Shown: positions 30,743-63,936 of the stretch, one piece after another | How the letters are laid out: every line of letters begins with the position of its first letter | Position numbering within the stretch: the stretch's first letter is position 1 | Assembly (NCBI GenBank): GCA_000182565.2 | Contig: KQ257453.1 | Source: Spizellomyces punctatus DAOM BR117 | Taxonomy: Eukaryota | DNA length: 64,000 bases | Strand: one strand, 5' to 3' | The notes under the pieces: generated by a model | Told to the model about the DNA's origin: nothing | The model's input: only the letters and a program-made list of their open reading frames with translations | Databases searched by the model: none | Program-made: the position numbers and the translations under genes

Positions 30743-33678
30743 CTATCCAAAATGCATCAACACCGTTTTACCCTTCTTCCCCTTTCGTCCCCTCTCCTCA
30801 TTTTTCTCCCCACTCTGTCCATCCTCGGATTCAGATCCCCACGCCTGACCCCCAATACGTCCATTGATGGGTCGAGAAAGTGCAGGTCGAGGGGCTCGTG
30901 TAGGTAATCCCGGAAACTCGTCCTTGTTCGCAATACGAGCTCCGACTCCCCCGACTGCTCTCGAATGGGGTCGATTGGGTTGAGAGGCAGTCGTGGCAAA
31001 GGATGGACGGGGTGGTGGGGCAATAGAGGGTTTAGATTCGGAATCGGACGAAGAGCCTTGTTGTTGTTGTTGTCCGCCTGAAGCGAGGTGTGCAAAGGTG
31101 ACAGGCGTCTGCTTTTCAGCGTCATCAAGCAAATTCGATCCGGCCGCTTGATCCCGCTCATGGATGTTCCGCGCCACTCGTTCCCAGACCGTTTCCTGTT
31201 TTTCGGTAGGATTGCGGAGAGAGTTCGATCCCCATCCGCCTCGGCTAAAGCGTTGTTTGCTCGCATTGTTTTTGATGACGAGCACACGGGCTGATGAGGG
31301 TGCTGAGGTTCGGGTGTCAGGGAGGACAGAGGATGGTGTGGCCGCGGATGAGGCATATGAAGGTGTGGAGGGTTTGCTCGGAGCGGGAACGTCGTTCGCC
31401 TGTAGAGCAGACGGGATTTGAGTGAATCCAATGTCGGACCACTTGGAAGGGAGAAGATTTCCTTTTACCTTGACTTTCCAATCATTCCATGCCCTCAACA
31501 TTTCGTTCCGCTTCTCGTTCTGTGCAGTGACCCTATCGTCGGACCGGTCCCTTTCGTTTTCCCTTGCTCTTGTTGTACGCCGCTAGTGACCAAGTCGACC
31601 TCATCGGGTACCGTGTCGGGACCGATTCGCTACGCGCATGCTTTGCGGCCTCGTCTCGCATCTAGCACTTTGCAGTTTTCTGCNNNNNNNNNNNNNNNNN
31701 NNNNNNNNNNNNNNNNNNNNNNNNNNNNNNNNNNNNNNNNNNNNNNNNNNNNNNNNNNNNNNNNNNNNNNNNNNNNNNNNNNNAACTTTGCCAGTTTTCC
31801 TGCAGAACAACGTCATGAAGCCTCCAGAAATTCGTCTGCACTGAGATGACCTTGCCTAAAGAGGCCGCAAAGGATCTGAACTCGCCGAGTTTTGACACAT
31901 CCGAGTTGAAGAGGGTTTGAAGTTTGGCGGTCAGCTCGGGGTCGGCGTTGGATGCAGAGTCGATTCCAGAAGAGATGCCGTTGGTCTTGGAGACGCCTGA
32001 CGCAGCTTCCGCGGGAGTCGGATGGGCCTTGACATGGGCAGATCTTGGATGTTGACGGTCTATTGTGGCAGGTGAGATAGGTGGGGATGCAGAGTCCGAT
32101 CGAGACCGGCCTTGCGTTGCTGGCTCTGCGTCTGATAGCTGTGATCCAAAGCCAGGTGGAGGTCGCAATCGCCGTACTCCGTCAGAAGGTGCAGGCGCGG
32201 GTGCAGGTACCGCTTGTGGTAGGAGTATTGGCTGAGGAGGAACCGATGCGTCGGCTGACCCTCTTGATTCTCCCCCGTTTCTGCGATTTGGACCATCAGA
32301 TGGCCGGCCATCCGCACGGCCATCACTCCGCCCACCTCTTTTGTCCCTTCTGCTCGATCGGCGACCATGATCGCTATCCCAACCCCTCGATGCATATGTG
32401 AAATTGACCTCAATTTGTTGCCCTTTTGCTCTTGCTTTCTGGTCACGGTGAACCTCGAGCTATTTTCACCATTGAGACTGATTAGGGAGATCAAGGAGAG
32501 ACACGGCATCCCAGCCATGTGCTCAAACCCACCTCATGTGCTTTCAAATCTATATCGGAATCAAATACCACAAATTTCTTTTCCAAGCATTCCGGGTGGT
32601 AGCATGGAAAATGATCGTTTTGGAAATGCACTTCCTGATGTGACAAAGTTAACACATGCCAAAGTAACAGCTGCAAAGACCTTAAACAAGGCCAAGATTA
32701 TAAGCATTACCATTTCGGCATAGTTCTGATAATACTGATTCCTGATTCCATTCCTCTGACAAAGGAAGCATTGCTCGTGTTTTTCGCGACAATGTTCATA
32801 CAATTCGTCCTGACTATAGAAGTGAATTTTGCAAAAGCCGCATTGTGGATGTCCTTTAAACGAAGGATCGTCTGGATCCCCTAACTTGTTATGTCGATCG
32901 AGGGTCGCGCGTGTGTAGAGTGTATGCTCATGTGTGAATAGCTTTTTATGCCGGGTGCAGAGTTCGCTTATAGGAAAGATGTGCCTGTGAGCATCGGAAG
33001 ACTCTGAATCTACGCTCCATACAACATACCACATCAGCATTCCGTGAGCCTTTCTGACGTGATCCTTAAGCTCTCGCCATCCACCAGCACACGCAACATC
33101 ACATCCAGGGTCGGGGCAATTAAAACGCAACAGAATCATGACGTCCTCGTAAATCTCAGGTTCATCAAAGTAGATTTTCAGCTTCTTATCATGAGCAGGC
33201 ATCGCTCGTAGATCAAAATCTTGAAAAACCGTATCGCCATCTTTGGTATATACTACTTCTGCAAGCTCCGTCTATGCAAGAGTATAAATTAGTCGTCGTT
33301 AGATTAGACCATTCGAAACACATTAAGTTGTCTATCACATACCTTGCAAAGCGCACACGTTCGCTGCTTATAGAGTGCGCGCAACCGCAATGAGCAGAGG
33401 TGACACACTCTGTGATTGCACTCCCCGACTGCGTACCATGTCACAGCGTCCGCACAAATGAAGCACAATTCTTCCTCCTCACGTGCTGCACCTTGAGTGG
33501 TTGCGACTGCATTTCCGTTGACAACGGCAGGAGCGACAGCCGGCATAAGTCCTGGGGGCAGTATCGCTGAGGGAGGTGCGGAATGGCTCACTGCCTGCGT
33601 CGGGTTAAACTCTGAGAGTGGAACAAACTTCTTCTTGTTGCCCTTTCCCTTCCGGTTCCCACTGTTGGCGCTGGTCAT
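30743..33678 (-). CDS. HEL2: Ribosome quality-control E3 ligase Hel2/ZNF598 (multi-exon; spans assembly gap)
   Basis: RING CFICA...CNHRVCHLCSLRLRALYK..CALCK; LLRFNCPD; C2H2-like FKGHPQCGFC..F...DELYEHCREKHEQCFLC; EFPGLP; C-terminal KGKKGK..LMHFG. Confidence 0.9.
31684..31783. other. Assembly gap (100 N)
   Basis: Run of N inside the HEL2 gene. Confidence 1.
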
Positions 33679-33961: not shown

Positions 33962-35156
33962 ATGGCAAGTGTTGCACGAGTCTACACGAACGCTTGTACG
34001 GAGAGAGCACAAGACTACTGGGATTATGACAATTTGCTCCTGCAGTGGAAGTAAGTCCTGCTTTGAGCCTGCACATGGACTTTCTGAACTGATCCACAAA
34101 TCTTCAGTGCTCAGGATAACTATGAGATTGTTAGGAAGGTGGGGCGAGGAAAGTACTCGGAGGTCTTTGAAGGAGTGAACGTGGCAAATGACCAAAAATG
34201 CTGCATCAAAGTCTTGAAACCCGTCAAGAAGAGAAAGATAAAGCGAGAGATCAAGATTCTCCAAAACCTCGCTGGCGGGCCAAATATCATTGGTCTCCTC
34301 GACATTGTACGGGATCCTCAATCGAAAACTCCCGCACTCATTTTCGAACACATCAACAACATTGATTTCAAAGTTCTCTACCCCAAATTGACAGACCATG
34401 AAGTCCGATATTACATATTCGAGTTGCTCAAAGCCTTGGATTTCTGTCACTCGCGAGGAATTATGCATCGGGACGTCAAACCTCATAACGTGATGATTGA
34501 TCATGAGAAGAAGCAATTGAGGCTGATTGACTGGGGACTGGCGGAGTTTTATCACCCGGGAGCAGAGTATAATGTCAGAGTCGCGTCGAGGTACTTCAAA
34601 GGACCAGAACTTTTGGTGGATTTTCAAGAGTACGACTACTCTCTGGACATGTGGAGTTTGGGTTGCATGTTTGCGAGCATGGTACGCTGCGTATTTTGCG
34701 TGTCAAAATGAGCGGCTGTTAATGACCTCTTCCTTTGTAGATATACCGAAAGGAGCCCTTCTTCCACGGACATGACAATTATGATCAGCTCGTGAAAATC
34801 GCCAAAGTTTTGGGAACAGAAGAGCTATTTGCCTACTTGGAAAAGTACAATATTCGACTGGATTCTCGATTTGACACTATTCTCGGAAGGTAAGCTCCGA
34901 CAACATAACGGGACATTTTTCAAATTTCGAACTCTGATTAACCTGTTCGAATGTAACTAGATACCCACGCAAGTCATGGAGGCGATTTGTAACTGCCGAA
35001 AATGAACGATATATATCGGATGAGGCGCTTGACTTTTTGGACAAGCTCCTGCGATACGACCACCAAGAACGATTGACACCGCAAGAAGCCATGATGCATC
35101 CTTATTTTGACCCTGTACGGCCAAAGGATTTCAAGCCAGGGGAGCTAAATGCATAG
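33962..35156 (+). CDS. CKA1: Casein kinase II alpha subunit (multi-exon)
   Basis: [67 protein letters not shown]. Confidence 0.97.
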
Positions 35157-57979: not shown

Positions 57980-59303
57980 TCAAAGGGTTTTTAAATGCTC
58001 AATGAAAAAATTTGTAACTCTCCGCCACGCAAGATTAACGAGATCCTTGTCAAATCCACCTTCGTAGCCAAGCTCCTTGCGTTGCTGAAGCGACCACGGA
58101 AGATCATTCATGAAAGCGTGCTAGGGAACAGATATGGAAATTAAATTGAATGTTTCCGACACCTCATTGGAAAGGCAACAGAGTATACTAGAGACTCACC
58201 CCTTGGCCCGGGTAGAAAAAGACGCTTGCCTCCAATTTGTGGAATCCTTCCGCATGTCTTCCACCATGCTGCCTGATCACCTCCTCCCATTTCCTTTGCA
58301 CGGCACGAGCGGTCTCGGGATCGCTAAATCCTTTTTTGTTATCCTTTTCCCCAATATGTAGTTGGACGGGCGTGTAGAGTGGAATGGGAGTAATGTCGAT
58401 GAGAGACAAAGGAGGAATCCCGTAAAATGAAACGCATGCTGAAATTGTTGGTGGGTGTATGCTTTTATGCAGCTGTGGCTTGAAATTTCGGGTTTATTTA
58501 CCATTAAGTGGTCCGGGATTCTTGGTGGGCCCAATGCTGGCGGCTAGAGCGAGAGACAGAGCCCCACCCATGCTAGACGAGGAGGACTATTAGCATTGAA
58601 TGCGGCTGTTGAGTCAAGTATGTTACGCACCAAAATCCTATTGAACCAATTTTTCTGCTCAAGAAAAGTCATTCGTACAAAGTCTTGCATTTTTTGCAGT
58701 GTACAGCCGTGGGAACTGTACCTTTTACCATCCTTTCTCAAATCCTTGACCAATTTCGATAGCTCATCTATGGCTCCGGGCCAATCCAATTCGTCTCTTA
58801 GATGTGCCGCTTCCTGACAATCATTTTCGAGTATTCACCACATAGCATTGACGATGGATCACAAAACGACGTAGTATCTCTTACAGCGGCGTCGAGTGCT
58901 TGCTTCCCCCGATACAGATCAGGAACAATTGCGATTGCTCCAGTATCATTTGCAAGGTGTTGCGCGTGTGCTTTTATTTGCTCGTTGATGCCCCACCATT
59001 CCTTGCAGGACCAATGTATGTTAACAAAAGCAGTAAAGATATCGTCCCCTCCGCTGCATATAAAGAAGCACAATCGCAAGTCCTTACCTGCAAGACAATA
59101 ATAACTGGTTCAGGAACAAAAGAGCCTTCTGTATTGAGGTCGTGCTCGACTTCTCCTTGTGGTTGAAACTCGAGAACGGGAAGTGACGACTTGTGCAAAC
59201 GGGAACCGGCCGAAAACCAGCGTCCCTTTAGTGCTGGGTTTAGCAGAGGAGCGCGAGCGTGGAGGCCACGAAGGACTCTGAAGGGAGTTTGTAGGAAAGG
59301 CAT
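57980..59303 (-). CDS. Dienelactone hydrolase-family protein with mitochondrial-like presequence (multi-exon)
   Basis: IIVLQ|EWWGINEQIK, AIVPDLYRGK, GF|CMGGALSL, FYGIP, HAFMN. Confidence 0.88.
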
Positions 59304-59462
59304 GTCAGGCTACAAGCTTCTGTTGGGGGAGTATTCAGATGAAAAGGTCTAAAGTTGAAGGACCAAGGCGAGCATGACTCATATCACGTCACGCGTTGTC
59401 GACACCAGCCAGTGCGAACAAGTAGCCAAGAAAACTGTTGTTGGATTCCAGAGGGAGCAACA

Positions 59463-59492
59463 TAGTGCGGAGCCGATGGGTATTGGCACTAG
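59463..59492 (+). repeat. Left terminal inverted repeat
   Basis: tagtgcggagccgatgggtattggcactag is the exact reverse complement of 61557-61586. Confidence 0.97.
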
Positions 59493-59568
59493 TACAAAGA
59501 TTCCAACCAATTTAATCATAATTTTACTCGATTTAGACTCATGAACTATGGTTTGATCCAAAAGATCC

Positions 59569-59575
59569 TATATAA
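59569..59575 (+). promoter_or_regulatory. Candidate TATA box for the Fanzor transcript
   Basis: TATATAA about 50 nt upstream of ATG 59627, inside the element's left end. Confidence 0.4.
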
Positions 59576-59626
59576 GTTGTCGTGCCCATTTTCCCAGGCT
59601 TTCATCTTTTTCCACAGATATCATCA

Positions 59627-61492
59627 ATGCCACCAAAAAAGAAGCAAAAACTCGAAAAACTCGACAAACCTACTTGCTTACATACCTATAACAAGACTTC
59701 CTTTGCAAAAGCTTTCCTGCCAAACTACCACCAACGGCTTCTAGATTACATCGCCATCATCCATGAACTCGCTTCCCACGCTCTCAAATTCTACATCCTA
59801 TCTGCACCATCCTTTCCCACGGTAGATCAAGATACAATCGAAGCGATTCTCTATCTTCTCAACAAAGGAGAGGCTTGGCATCCAAGAAAGGAAGCAAAGA
59901 AGGCATGGCGGGATTGTTTGCTGCCATATGTTTAACGGTACTGCCAAATCGTCGGCTTCGTTCACCCAAATCTACGAGGCGAGCAGCAATCAGTCAATTA
60001 CCTGACAGCAAGTATGATGACAAACCTGAAGGTCAACGTTCAAGAGCATTTCATGCAGATGCTCCTTCGGTATATCAATCTGCGGCTCGACGTGAAGGGA
60101 CAGAAGCAGCGACTGCCACTGAAAAGCGATGCGCGGAAAGCTTTCTTTACTCGACTACGCTACTTAAAGTCAGTTTTTCTTTTTGATACTGTACCTGAGT
60201 TGCTGGATTTAACACCATTGGAGAGCGAGGTTCTTGAAGAGATTTGGTCGCTCGATCTGCCTTTTCTTGTTGACAATCCACTCGCCTTCGCAGTTGTCGT
60301 GGATCCAATGTCCTTTTTCCCTGCTTACTGTCGGTTGTCAAGCCTATATGAAAAGCATGGATTTCGACGGTTCAGTGCAATCCCACTTCGCCGCTCCCTC
60401 ATCCAAAGCCACATTCGTATCGACACGGTTATTCTGCACCAGCATATCCTCTGCATCACCCGCCAAGAAGCAGAAGCCGTAGCGAAGGTCGATTTATGGT
60501 TGCGCGTCTGTAATCTGCAGAACAAGGCTTTTAGATCTCGTCATGGAATGTGTTTTGAAGGCTCGATCACGACGGACGGAACCTCGATGTCTGTATACCT
60601 AAAGCACCCAGACGCAGACAAGTATGGAAAGCGCGGAGCGAGAAAGTCAGCAAAGACTCTAGAAGCTGAGGTGAAGGCAGTATATGTGGAGAACAACTTG
60701 CCTGCTTGTCGAGCAGCAGAAAATGTCATCGTTATCGACCCAAACAAGCGCGACATTCTCTACTGCCAAGACAGCAATGGTACGACGTTCCGCTACACCG
60801 CCAATCAACGCTGCAAGGAGACAGGTAGCCGCCGAATTGCAAAGAGACGAGAAGCAATGAAAGCCGGCGGCATTGACCTCATAGAATCACGTATCCCAAG
60901 CCACAAGACGATGAACCTCATGGACTTTACTCGCTACCTTCTCGTTCGTCGCGCAGATTCGGATCGTCGCAAGGAATTCTACTCCCACCCTGCCCACACA
61001 CGGTGGAAGTGGCATGCATTTATAAACCGTCAGAAGAGTGAATCGAACCTCATATCCAACTTGCGCAACAAGTTTGGGAACTTTACCATTGTGATGGGAG
61101 ATTGGAGCGATGCCGGTCGAACTGCGAGATTTCAGACCTCATCCAAGACAAAAGGCTGGCGCACCCTCTTTAAGCGCAACCGCATTGATTGTTTCCTTCT
61201 CGACGAGTACAAGACCTCATCTGTCTGCCCTCACTGTTCCTCTGACGTTGAAAAAGGTTTCAAAACACGACCTCATTCAAGACCTTATCGACGACGAGAA
61301 GGCAAGATTGAAAAAGTCCACGGATTGCTGGGTTGTACCAACCCTAACTGTTTGCAGCAAGCCTGGACGATGCGCTACTGGAATCGAGATACGCTGTCAA
61401 CCTGCAATATGGTAACGATCGTGCAATCAATGTTGGATGGACACGGTAGACCAGAGGTGTTCAGCAGGAGGAGTGTTCCAGCTGTAGCGTAG
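59627..61492 (+). pseudogene. Fanzor1 RNA-guided endonuclease (TnpB/Cas12 family, SpuFz1-like), 621 codons with one in-frame TAA at 59933-59935
   Basis: MPPKKKQKL NLS; frame continues past TAA (YV*RYCQIVGF...SMMTNLK) into the 492-aa ORF; RuvC I VIDPN (D 60737), RuvC II LDEYKTS (E 61205), Zn finger CPHC...CTNPNC, RuvC III NRD (D 61388); closely resembles SpuFz1 as I recall it. Confidence 0.93.
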
Positions 61493-61511
61493 CGTAGATT
61501 GGTTAGATTAG

Positions 61512-61601
61512 GTTTTCCGAGCCGGTTGTCGCGCGGTTCAATCCCTGGTGCGGGTGCTAGTGCCAATACCCATCGGCTCCGCACTACATATGAAGAGGGC
61601 A
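61512..61601 (+). ncRNA. Fanzor omegaRNA: 75-nt scaffold (61512-61586) plus about 15-nt guide read from flanking DNA (61587-61601)
   Basis: Starts 19 nt after the Fanzor stop and ends at the right TIR; gagccgg (61519-25) pairs with tcggctc (61573-79); inner hairpin gggtg..taccc (61552-71); matches the SpuFz1 omegaRNA layout from memory; exact ends inferred. Confidence 0.85.
61557..61586 (-). repeat. Right terminal inverted repeat (overlaps the 3' end of the omegaRNA scaffold)
   Basis: ctagtgccaatacccatcggctccgcacta. Confidence 0.97.
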
Positions 61602-61695
61602 GGCAAAATAACTACTGTTCGGTAACACTCCTACTTCTACATTACGTGTTCACTAAAATTAAAACAGCCTTCCGGACCAGCCGGTGGACTGCTAC

Positions 61696-63936
61696 TTACG
61701 CACCCAAGACCCATTTTCCAATGAACGCATCGAATCCCATATCATTGACAACAATATCACCATACAACTCTCGTAACTCTAGACTTGTAAAGCTCTCCAA
61801 GGCTGCTCTGTGTCTTGATGTAGATACAGAAGGTCTCGGCGTTGACAGCTTTGAGTACGCGCAATCATCACTATCTTCCACATCCGAGCTTGGCTCCGCA
61901 AGCCGTAGGACAGAACCCTTGAGCTCGCTGAATCGATGAACGGATCGAGCATACTCCACTGCGGCCTGAAATGTTGCAAAGAGGTTTAGATCAAAAGCTG
62001 TTCATCAACCATTTGGAGGAAAACCATACCTCGGGGGTCAAGTCTCTGACAGAAACATTTCCCACTGATGCCTGACCAAAGCTGTCCACACTGATATTGT
62101 TTGTCACCCACCAGCGGGGTAAGTGGCTATTTTTACGACGAATCCAAAGGGTTTTCCACCCGCCATCGGTGTCCTCTCCACCGGTTTCAGTCTTTCCTCG
62201 ACGAATGGAGAAGATCCTTTCAATGGGACTGACGCCAGAGTTTCCTCGTCCATTTGCTCGTAATCTCGTCAATGGCCTCACTGGAGCCACCGACTCCCGT
62301 TTTTGACGTGGTCCATCATCATCCGCTACTCGGGCAACATTGCGAACGCTGTTTTGCTTGAGCCAGCGGACCGGAGCGGAAAAGACTCGTTTAATCTTTC
62401 CCCAATTGATCAACGTTTTGCGATTTGCCTTTTGCTGTTGCTCCTCCCCATACTTAAAATCTCGGGGGATCGTAGAATGTCTATGGGATTGGCTGAGCGT
62501 CGTGCCGCCAGCGGCAGGGGCGGAAGCACCTTCAGCGACCGCTACCCAATTACGAGCAGTCCATAGAGCTTCCTCCAGTAGAACTTCTACTGGTGTCACT
62601 GTTGAGGGACAGGACTCCCTTGTTGGGGTTAACGGCTGAGGACTATCCCGGTTGGGTGCGTAATTCTCTAGCCATGCATCAGAGTCAAGAAACGGAATCT
62701 CCAGTGGTATGCGAGGCAAGGACGGAAGGACATATTTGTTGTAACCGGTGACTTCATATAGTTCAGGTTTTGTGTCATTCTGTAGAGGTGTCCGATTCGG
62801 AAGTTCAGGCGGCGATTCATTAGGTATGTTCAACTCCATGGTCGTGAATCTGGAGTCCACAGAAAGATGAGCCATGTACGTTCGTGCAGTCAGCAAGGAC
62901 GATTCCGTTTGTGCTGTCTGAATGCCTTTATCCACTTTATCTATATGGTCTGCATTCTCGACAGTACTGGCTGCAGCAAGCTTTTTTGCTGCTGGGTCGG
63001 TAGTACTGAAGTTTGTGGCGTCTTCTTTGGCGCTGTCGTTTTCGATATCAGTATTTGATGGTGGTCTCGACGCTTCGACATGCTCAGAGTCTTTCCTTAG
63101 TAGGTGAACTGGTAGCAGAGGCGTCTGATCTTTCGCAAAAATTGCCGCATGAATCACACTATCGTCGGGCAGTAGTAACTCTTCCTGCTCCATGTCTAAT
63201 TCAGATGCTATAGCCGTCGTTTCTTCCGGTGCAGGATCGACCAGGGGCGCATGTCTGTTACGCTTATGATCAGAATGCCTACGAGTAAGAGTCACCGGCA
63301 TGCTGTCGACGTTAACTGCATCTAAGAGATATGAGATAGAGTCATCAGTTAAGCAGTACATGAAGCACTTACCAGGAAGCGACGCGTCTTGTTCCGCACT
63401 TGCTATCATTATCCCATGGGTTTTTATGGAAGATTGAAGCTCTTCAACGACTGGTGCCCCATATTCATCTAGCACATCACACGCAGTCAAGAACGAATCT
63501 GCGGGACTCGTGCCATAAGGGAGCACGTCCAAGTCCTTAGCACACTGCTGGAGGTGCAGCGCTTTATCAGAAATAATATCCTGCTCAGTGCCTGGGTATT
63601 GGATATTTTCATTGACATGAGTCCTCTCGGTGGAGGTTGTGGAAAGTATGGTCACATCAGCCGCGGAATTGGTACCGTAGGAGGATTGGCCTTGAGCAAC
63701 TCGAGTAAGCACACGGGAGGACTACACAGTCTTGAATGACGTTCACGAAACTTACTTGATCGCAACCAGGTGACGTCCGTGTCAATATGCAGTCCTTTTT
63801 TATTAACCACATTGACAGGACTGTCGCCAATATAAACAATGCCTTCTTGAAATTCATGATCCTCTTCTACGTCGACGGGATCATTTGAGAGCTCCAACTT
63901 GGAGTCTTTTCTGGTGGCCAGCATCGTAGTTGCCAT
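61696..63936 (-). CDS. Hypothetical low-complexity protein (about 3 exons)
   Basis: 573-aa ORF plus flanking ORFs linked by plausible GT..AG introns (donors near 63756 and 62029); no recognised domain. Confidence 0.55.

Follow-up and report, generated by a model that had tools for sequence, protein, structure and literature searches.

Junction geometry of an SPu-1 copy in Spizellomyces punctatus is consistent with Fanzor cutting of empty sites

An interrupted SPu-1 copy between two genes

The window analyzed here is a stretch of 64,000 nucleotides of Spizellomyces punctatus DNA, shown as one strand, and by its sequence features the segment at 59463-61586 is one copy of SPu-1, 2,124 bp in length. 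SPu-1 is a non-autonomous inverted-repeat transposon of this fungus that carries the Fanzor1 nuclease SpuFz1 and, at its right end, a guide-RNA gene. The prototype Fanzor element, it was described as about 2,100 bp long, with terminal inverted repeats (TIRs) of 33 bp and putative target-site duplications (TSDs) of TA, and as present in 17 full-length copies, 9 of which have intact open reading frames (ORFs) (Bao and Jurka 2013, PMC3627910). In a later analysis, the repeats were given as 30 nt long, and a CA upstream of the left one was reported as conserved at 42 Fanzor loci and 134 ghost loci, the latter with working guides (Saito et al. 2023, PMC10432273). The size, the 33-nt repeats, and the flanking TA of the window element agree with the first description, and CA stands at 59461-59462, immediately upstream of the left repeat, as in the second. 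Because 9 of the 17 full-length copies are intact, interrupted copies such as this one are normal members of the family.

The left TIR (59463-59495, plus strand) opens with a TA at 59463-59464, the putative TSD, and continues into a perfect core at 59465-59492, while the right TIR (61554-61586, minus strand) holds its perfect core at 61557-61584 and a TA at 61585-61586. This 28-nt core, GTGCGG...CACTAG, has two exact occurrences in the window, one on each strand, with 0 expected from 100 shuffles. Taken together with the TA, the arms are 33 nt long and 97% complementary. TA is thus present at both ends of the element and, as it is its own reverse complement, a duplication and the termini of the repeats look alike. 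A second copy or a ghost repeat elsewhere in the window was not found: apart from the element's own ends, no 30-mer resembled the repeat at up to 10 mismatches, and BLAST within the window gave no match with E < 0.01 except the element against itself. A metagenome scan with a 492-aa ORF as query produced 38 pattern matches, 0 of which were confirmed by tblastn. A second metagenome scan, with a 20-nt repeat core, gave one locus (L001, 3090-3110), which has 21 nt in common with the repeat core, is otherwise unrelated, and, given the very large size of the collection, is taken to be a coincidence.

The sole long reading frame of the element is its Fanzor1 gene, of SpuFz1 type (59627-61492, plus strand), which spans 621 codons and contains an in-frame TAA at 59933-59935. 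The 621-residue product obtained by reading through this one internal stop, written as X, matches SpuFz1 (chain P of PDB 8GKH) from end to end, with 1224 bits and an E-value of 0 (query residues 2-621 on chain residues 396-1032). Residues were numbered as chain position minus 394, with roles taken from the structure paper (PMC10432273). By this numbering, the RuvC catalytic residues D383, N385, E541, and D606 and the TAM-contacting residues R96, Q129, Q130, N133, R291, and Y345 are all kept in the frame of the window copy. A Pfam search with the read-through protein returned 0 families at E up to 0.01, so that the assignment to a family depends on the alignment with the solved structure 8GKH.

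The TAA falls at the codon aligned to Q112 of the reference and breaks what would be a single ORF, and several small in-frame indels also set the window copy apart from the solved SpuFz1 protein. Upstream of the stop, the N-terminus of the Fanzor protein (59627-59662, MPPKKKQKLEKL) is a short basic stretch, which we take to resemble a nuclear localization signal. Judged by its sequence, the nuclease gene of this copy is most likely dead, because a product restarted downstream would lose the N-terminal WED and REC contacts. Like the published ghost loci, the window copy probably supplies guide RNA alone, for use by nuclease from other copies.

Contigs from four public runs were compared with window positions 58500-62600. 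In X3 and X10, which resemble spliced cDNA, nothing covers the DNA next to the junctions, and X11 contributes only two short pieces inside the ORF. The X3 and X10 contigs skip stretches of 58, 67, 71, 86, and 64 nt (58572-59087 and 61964-62029) whose CT..AC ends correspond to GT..AG on the minus strand; these stretches are spliced introns of two neighboring minus-strand genes. The same contigs end at 59214 and 61598, which puts the element between two genes, in a gap of about 260 nt, at a distance of 11 nt from the assembled 3' end of the right-hand gene. Farther away, the large ORFs of 2011-46827 are ordinary eukaryotic housekeeping genes, for UTP25, an EF-G-like GTPase (two ORFs), a diacylglycerol kinase, an Spb1/FtsJ methyltransferase, and a cation efflux protein. 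The 100 consecutive N at 31684-31783 presumably mark an assembly gap.

The guide RNA and the question of a transposase

In the SpuFz1 omegaRNA, a scaffold of 75 nt, in which the right repeat is contained, precedes a variable guide of 14-15 nt (PMC10432273). In the window copy, the scaffold was placed in the register of the published positions at 61512-61586 (plus strand), where it ends in the right TIR and the right-hand TA. With position 1 at 61512, the published U5, C6, C7, and G20 land on U, C, C, and G. This register makes the A at 61586, in the right-hand TA, position 75 and puts the first guide nucleotide at 61587. The guide and the flank that it matches, CATATGAAGAGGGCA, occupy 61587-61601 (plus strand), the guide length of 14-15 nt being taken from the same paper, and this guide differs from the one in the published structure. 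Among all 15-mers of the window, only two sites lie within 3 mismatches of the guide, its own at 61587 and one at 34737 on the minus strand, which has 3 mismatches and is preceded by TCTA.

In the predicted minimum-energy fold, stem 2 comprises positions 35-75 with an 8-nt loop, which agrees with the canonical omegaRNA of PMC10432273, and both U74 and A75 are paired. The fold energy of scaffold plus guide is no better than that of shuffled sequences (z = -0.69; 46 of 200 shuffles fold as well), and the predicted fold is used here only as agreement with the published description. Rfam held no matching family for 59300-61800, giving two sub-threshold chance hits only. At scaffold positions 1 and 10 (61512 and 61521), the window copy has G and G, where the other copies visible in loose contig ends of X1 and X3 have C and A. 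The predicted fold keeps stem 1 either way, with an A10-U26 pair in the other copies and G10-U26 here.

No DD(E/D) transposase was found in the element or among the ten scanned of the eleven large ORFs that the window holds besides Fanzor, and the published genome analysis likewise reports none within the SPu-1 repeats, as far as its available portions go (PMC10432273). A literature search for a Spizellomyces transposase partner yielded two reviews only. The element contains no TnpA and carries inverted repeats with TA in place of subterminal hairpins, which sets it apart from homing systems of the IS200/IS605 type, where a Y1 or serine TnpA excises the element scarlessly and regenerates TAM plus target. 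Excision of the DDE cut-and-paste kind, according to a 2026 review, itself leaves a break.

Junctions, the TAM, and the reconstructed empty site

At the left junction, 59459-59470 (AACATAGTGCGG), the flank runs into the element as CA-TA/GTGCGG, and at the right end, 61579-61601, the sequence is CCGCAC-TA-CATATGAAGAGGGCA, with the junction CCGCAC/TA-CATATG. Both junctions had been read in this way in the original prediction, and the window sequence confirms them to the base. Contigs of run X1, which may be the source strain, reproduce both occupied junctions without differences (58500-59489 and 61557-62369). One further X1 contig joins 59519 and 61591 on opposite strands; the join is most likely an assembly path across the inverted repeat rather than a true inversion.

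The four bases CATA at the left junction (59461-59464, plus strand) are made up of the flanking CA and the left TA, and they equal the published TAM of SpuFz1. That TAM, 5'-CATA-3', was obtained from an 8N library screen, and mutation of any of its bases abolished cleavage; in the same paper, the legend of Extended Data Fig. 3a includes "TAM regions" in its list of the depicted locus elements (PMC10432273). A related view appears in the 2026 review, which counts the 5' TSD toward the TAM and places the 3' TSD inside the scaffold. In the window copy, then, the motif in the left flank is the published TAM of the nuclease and the guide is the right flank. The earlier claim that the left CATA equals the predicted TAM gains its substance from the published motif, as the prediction itself had been read from this very junction and was circular.

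Taken by itself, CA before TA at one locus is weak evidence, and 388 of the 5,436 TA dinucleotides of the window, counted on both strands, are preceded by CA (7.1%). The CA matters because its conservation across Fanzor and ghost loci has been published (PMC10432273). It is also one-sided here, the right flank reading TG-TA and not CA-TA on the opposite strand. Other copies show that the motif is not invariant: in the left flank of one copy, seen in X3 as a loose end before 59462, T replaces C at -4, a C-to-T transition that yields TATA, so not every SPu-1 copy keeps a perfect TAM. The expectation that CATA would recur at the left end of other copies is in line with the reported conservation of CA (PMC10432273), with this X3 copy as an exception.

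It had further been proposed that removal of the element with one TA left behind would bring the TAM directly before the guide match, and this fits the published TAM, guide start, and conserved CA. The reconstructed empty site would read ...GCAA-CATA-CATATGAAGAGGGCA, in which the TAM leads straight into the 15-nt match to the guide on the non-target strand. Under the TA reading, the allele as a whole would be ...CATACATATG..., that is, ...CA-TA-CATATGAAG..., and we infer that an empty allele of this sequence exists or once existed. No contig in any of the four runs joins 59464 to 61587, a result to be read with the fact that contigs cannot show absence and that X3 and X10, uncovered at the junctions, do not bear on an empty allele. 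The same empty site is obtained whether TA was duplicated or GTGCGG...CACTA was inserted 3' of CATA without any duplication; the reconstruction would fail only if CA or CATA had been duplicated, which would leave ...GCAA-CATA-TGAAG.

Such a longer duplication deserves attention, since CATA, and with it CA, is found on both sides at this locus, as CATA/GTGCGG on the left and CACTA/CATA on the right. With CA or CATA duplicated, the element would be TAGTG...CACTA or GTGCGG...CACTA, respectively, and the empty site ...AACATATGAAG... would have no TAM before the guide match and would not be a target. However, the right flank of another copy, represented in X10, begins with TACT, so that CATA at the guide start is not a 4-bp duplication, and CA after a given position is expected by chance about 1 time in 16. 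At the published loci, the sequence past the scaffold varies and CA is conserved at the left end alone (PMC10432273), and TA duplications were inferred by Bao and Jurka (PMC3627910). A duplication of CA or CATA is, on this evidence, highly improbable. The preference for TA over CA or CATA expressed in the original prediction is therefore favored, and the TG-TA at the right end speaks against the longer duplication as well; TA would be the target-site duplication, a status that is putative in PMC3627910 too.

At the occupied locus, the guide-matching DNA is preceded by ACTA (61583-61586, plus strand), as had been noted beforehand. ACTA is not a TAM and departs from CATA at -4 and -3. Because it differs at two positions, and point mutants of the TAM were not cut (PMC10432273), the occupied site should be spared from self-cutting.

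A possible role in homing and comparison with known systems

We favor, with a probability of roughly 0.6, a reading in which this SPu-1 copy takes part in RNA-guided cutting of the empty allele, leading to homing or restoration, with the occupied site spared and the window copy contributing only a guide. In each copy, transcription through the right end would generate a guide from the 15 nt of host DNA just past the right-hand TA. The nuclease would require CATA immediately 5' of its target, and the empty site would provide it from the flanking CA and the single TA. SpuFz1 cuts after bases 16-17 of the non-target strand and 20-21 of the target strand (PMC10432273), and the breaks in the empty allele would fall some 16-21 bp rightward of the insertion point. 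Repair of the break from the occupied allele would then copy the element in, which is homing, or restore it. ACTA before the guide match would keep the occupied element from cutting itself, and the window copy, with its stop at Q112, would offer a guide only, for nuclease made by other copies. Fanzor would, moreover, act on pristine empty alleles and not on excision scars.

Excision of Tc1/mariner elements usually leaves a footprint, a few element bases between two TAs. After such excision, TGTA or ACTA, not CATA, would therefore precede the target, and the adjacency of TAM and target would be lost. Given this footprint chemistry, "empty allele" fits better than "excised allele." The cutting geometry originally proposed for excised or empty alleles alike is accordingly retained for pristine empty alleles and given up for excised ones, in which the footprint would destroy the adjacency.

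A homing or retention role in the fungus is suggested by analogy with TnpB, for which the cutting of vacant sites is a precedent. In the available portions of the 2026 review, restorative homing counts as demonstrated for the TnpB of IS605 and IS607 and for IscB, but not for any Fanzor, and a published demonstration of Fanzor homing or gene drive was not found in the parts of the literature at hand.

Why the left flank carries a TAM could also be explained without homing. The geometry may be a by-product of insertion preference for CATA-like sites, with a TAM that coevolved with this preference or happens to match it, in which case Fanzor would have its role elsewhere, for instance in trans through ghost guides, and there would be no homing at SPu-1 sites. 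The structure paper proposes action in trans and calls the role of Fanzor unknown, and it describes the 134 ghost loci with working guides and no SPu-1 transposase (PMC10432273); the nonsense mutation in the window copy and the TATA at the left of one other copy also accord with an insertion preference. A transposase dimer acting on symmetric repeats, however, should prefer a symmetric CA-TA-TG, and the right flank here is TG-TA on the opposite strand, while conserved CA is reported at the left end only (PMC10432273). In addition, IS605 and IS607 TnpB home by means of just such an empty site, in which the guide start abuts the TAM exactly. We regard an insertion preference as unlikely, though it deserves to be taken seriously. 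Pure coincidence at a dead copy, with CA standing before TA by chance and nothing acting on the site, would be in keeping with the 7.1% of window TAs that follow CA, with the broken ORF, and with the lack of an empty allele in the contigs of four runs, which cannot show absence. The conservation of CA across Fanzor and ghost loci (PMC10432273) argues against it, and chance seems to us hardly credible.

If RNA-guided cutting of empty alleles is accepted, the one-sidedness of the left CA invites a further, tentative step. The CA might be the mark of selection by the nuclease and not of transposase taste, SPu-1 and its ghosts persisting only where insertion recreates CATA before a guide match. 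The Fanzor-guide complex could then cut and convert pristine empty alleles, as opposed to footprinted excision sites, after cell fusion or mating. We consider this possible but doubtful as it stands. If true, a eukaryote would harbor, in SPu-1, a natural RNA-guided gene drive on which even nuclease-dead copies such as this one ride along through the guides that they supply.

The observation at the junction is confirmed as real, its interpretation is supported in terms of geometry, and it is already known for the SPu-1 family. The element and its TA are in print (PMC3627910), as are the TAM, the conserved CA, and the guide boundary (PMC10432273) and the idea of a TSD within the TAM (2026 review). 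The self-protection argument has been published for IS607 (bioRxiv 10.1101/2023.08.09.552727); for SpuFz1, neither this argument nor the one from footprints was found spelled out in the available parts of the literature. The locus adds no new principle and is instead a clean worked example with a nuclease-dead copy. The locus displays the geometry that homing requires, a TAM and guide match when empty and a non-TAM when occupied. It could serve as a concrete substrate for a homing test.

Set against the published SPu-1 and SpuFz1 (PMC3627910, PMC10432273, 8GKH), the window copy is alike in its length of about 2.1 kb, its 30-33-nt repeats, TA at both ends, the left CA, and a single Fanzor ORF. 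Also shared are the 75-nt scaffold with the right repeat at its end, a guide taken from the flank, and a protein that aligns end to end. It differs in the stop at Q112, the small in-frame indels, a different guide, and scaffold positions 1 and 10, which depart from those of the copies in the reads.

Among prokaryotic relatives, IS200/IS605 TnpB elements (ISDra2, GstIS605-type), as far as they are described in the sources available, share with SPu-1 a TAM in the left flank, a guide in the right flank, an empty site composed of TAM plus target, and an occupied right end without a TAM. Unlike SPu-1, they are moved scarlessly as single strands by a Y1 HUH TnpA, have subterminal hairpins, and make no duplication, whereas SPu-1 is bounded by inverted repeats with TA at either side, encodes no transposase itself, and has a guide RNA that lacks the pseudoknot. 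In IS607 TnpB (ISXfa1; Yoon et al. 2023, bioRxiv 10.1101/2023.08.09.552727), the RNA scaffold takes in a fixed nucleotide from the flank, as it does the TA here, and the occupied right junction is again a non-TAM, CGG versus GGG there and ACTA versus CATA here. Common to both is the notion of selection by the nuclease for insertion sites that bear a TAM. IS607 departs from SPu-1 in its serine recombinase, its G-rich TAM, and its experimentally supported homing.

The Fanzor1 proteins carried by Tc1/mariner elements of insects, oomycetes, and giant viruses offer a eukaryotic comparison, according to the available descriptions. Their TA duplications resemble the putative one of SPu-1, and their conserved terminal guide-RNA stem incorporates the TIR and TSD; the predicted stem 2 of the window copy pairs U74 and A75 in the manner of that TIR/TSD stem. 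Unlike SPu-1, several of them encode a mariner transposase or share their repeats with one.
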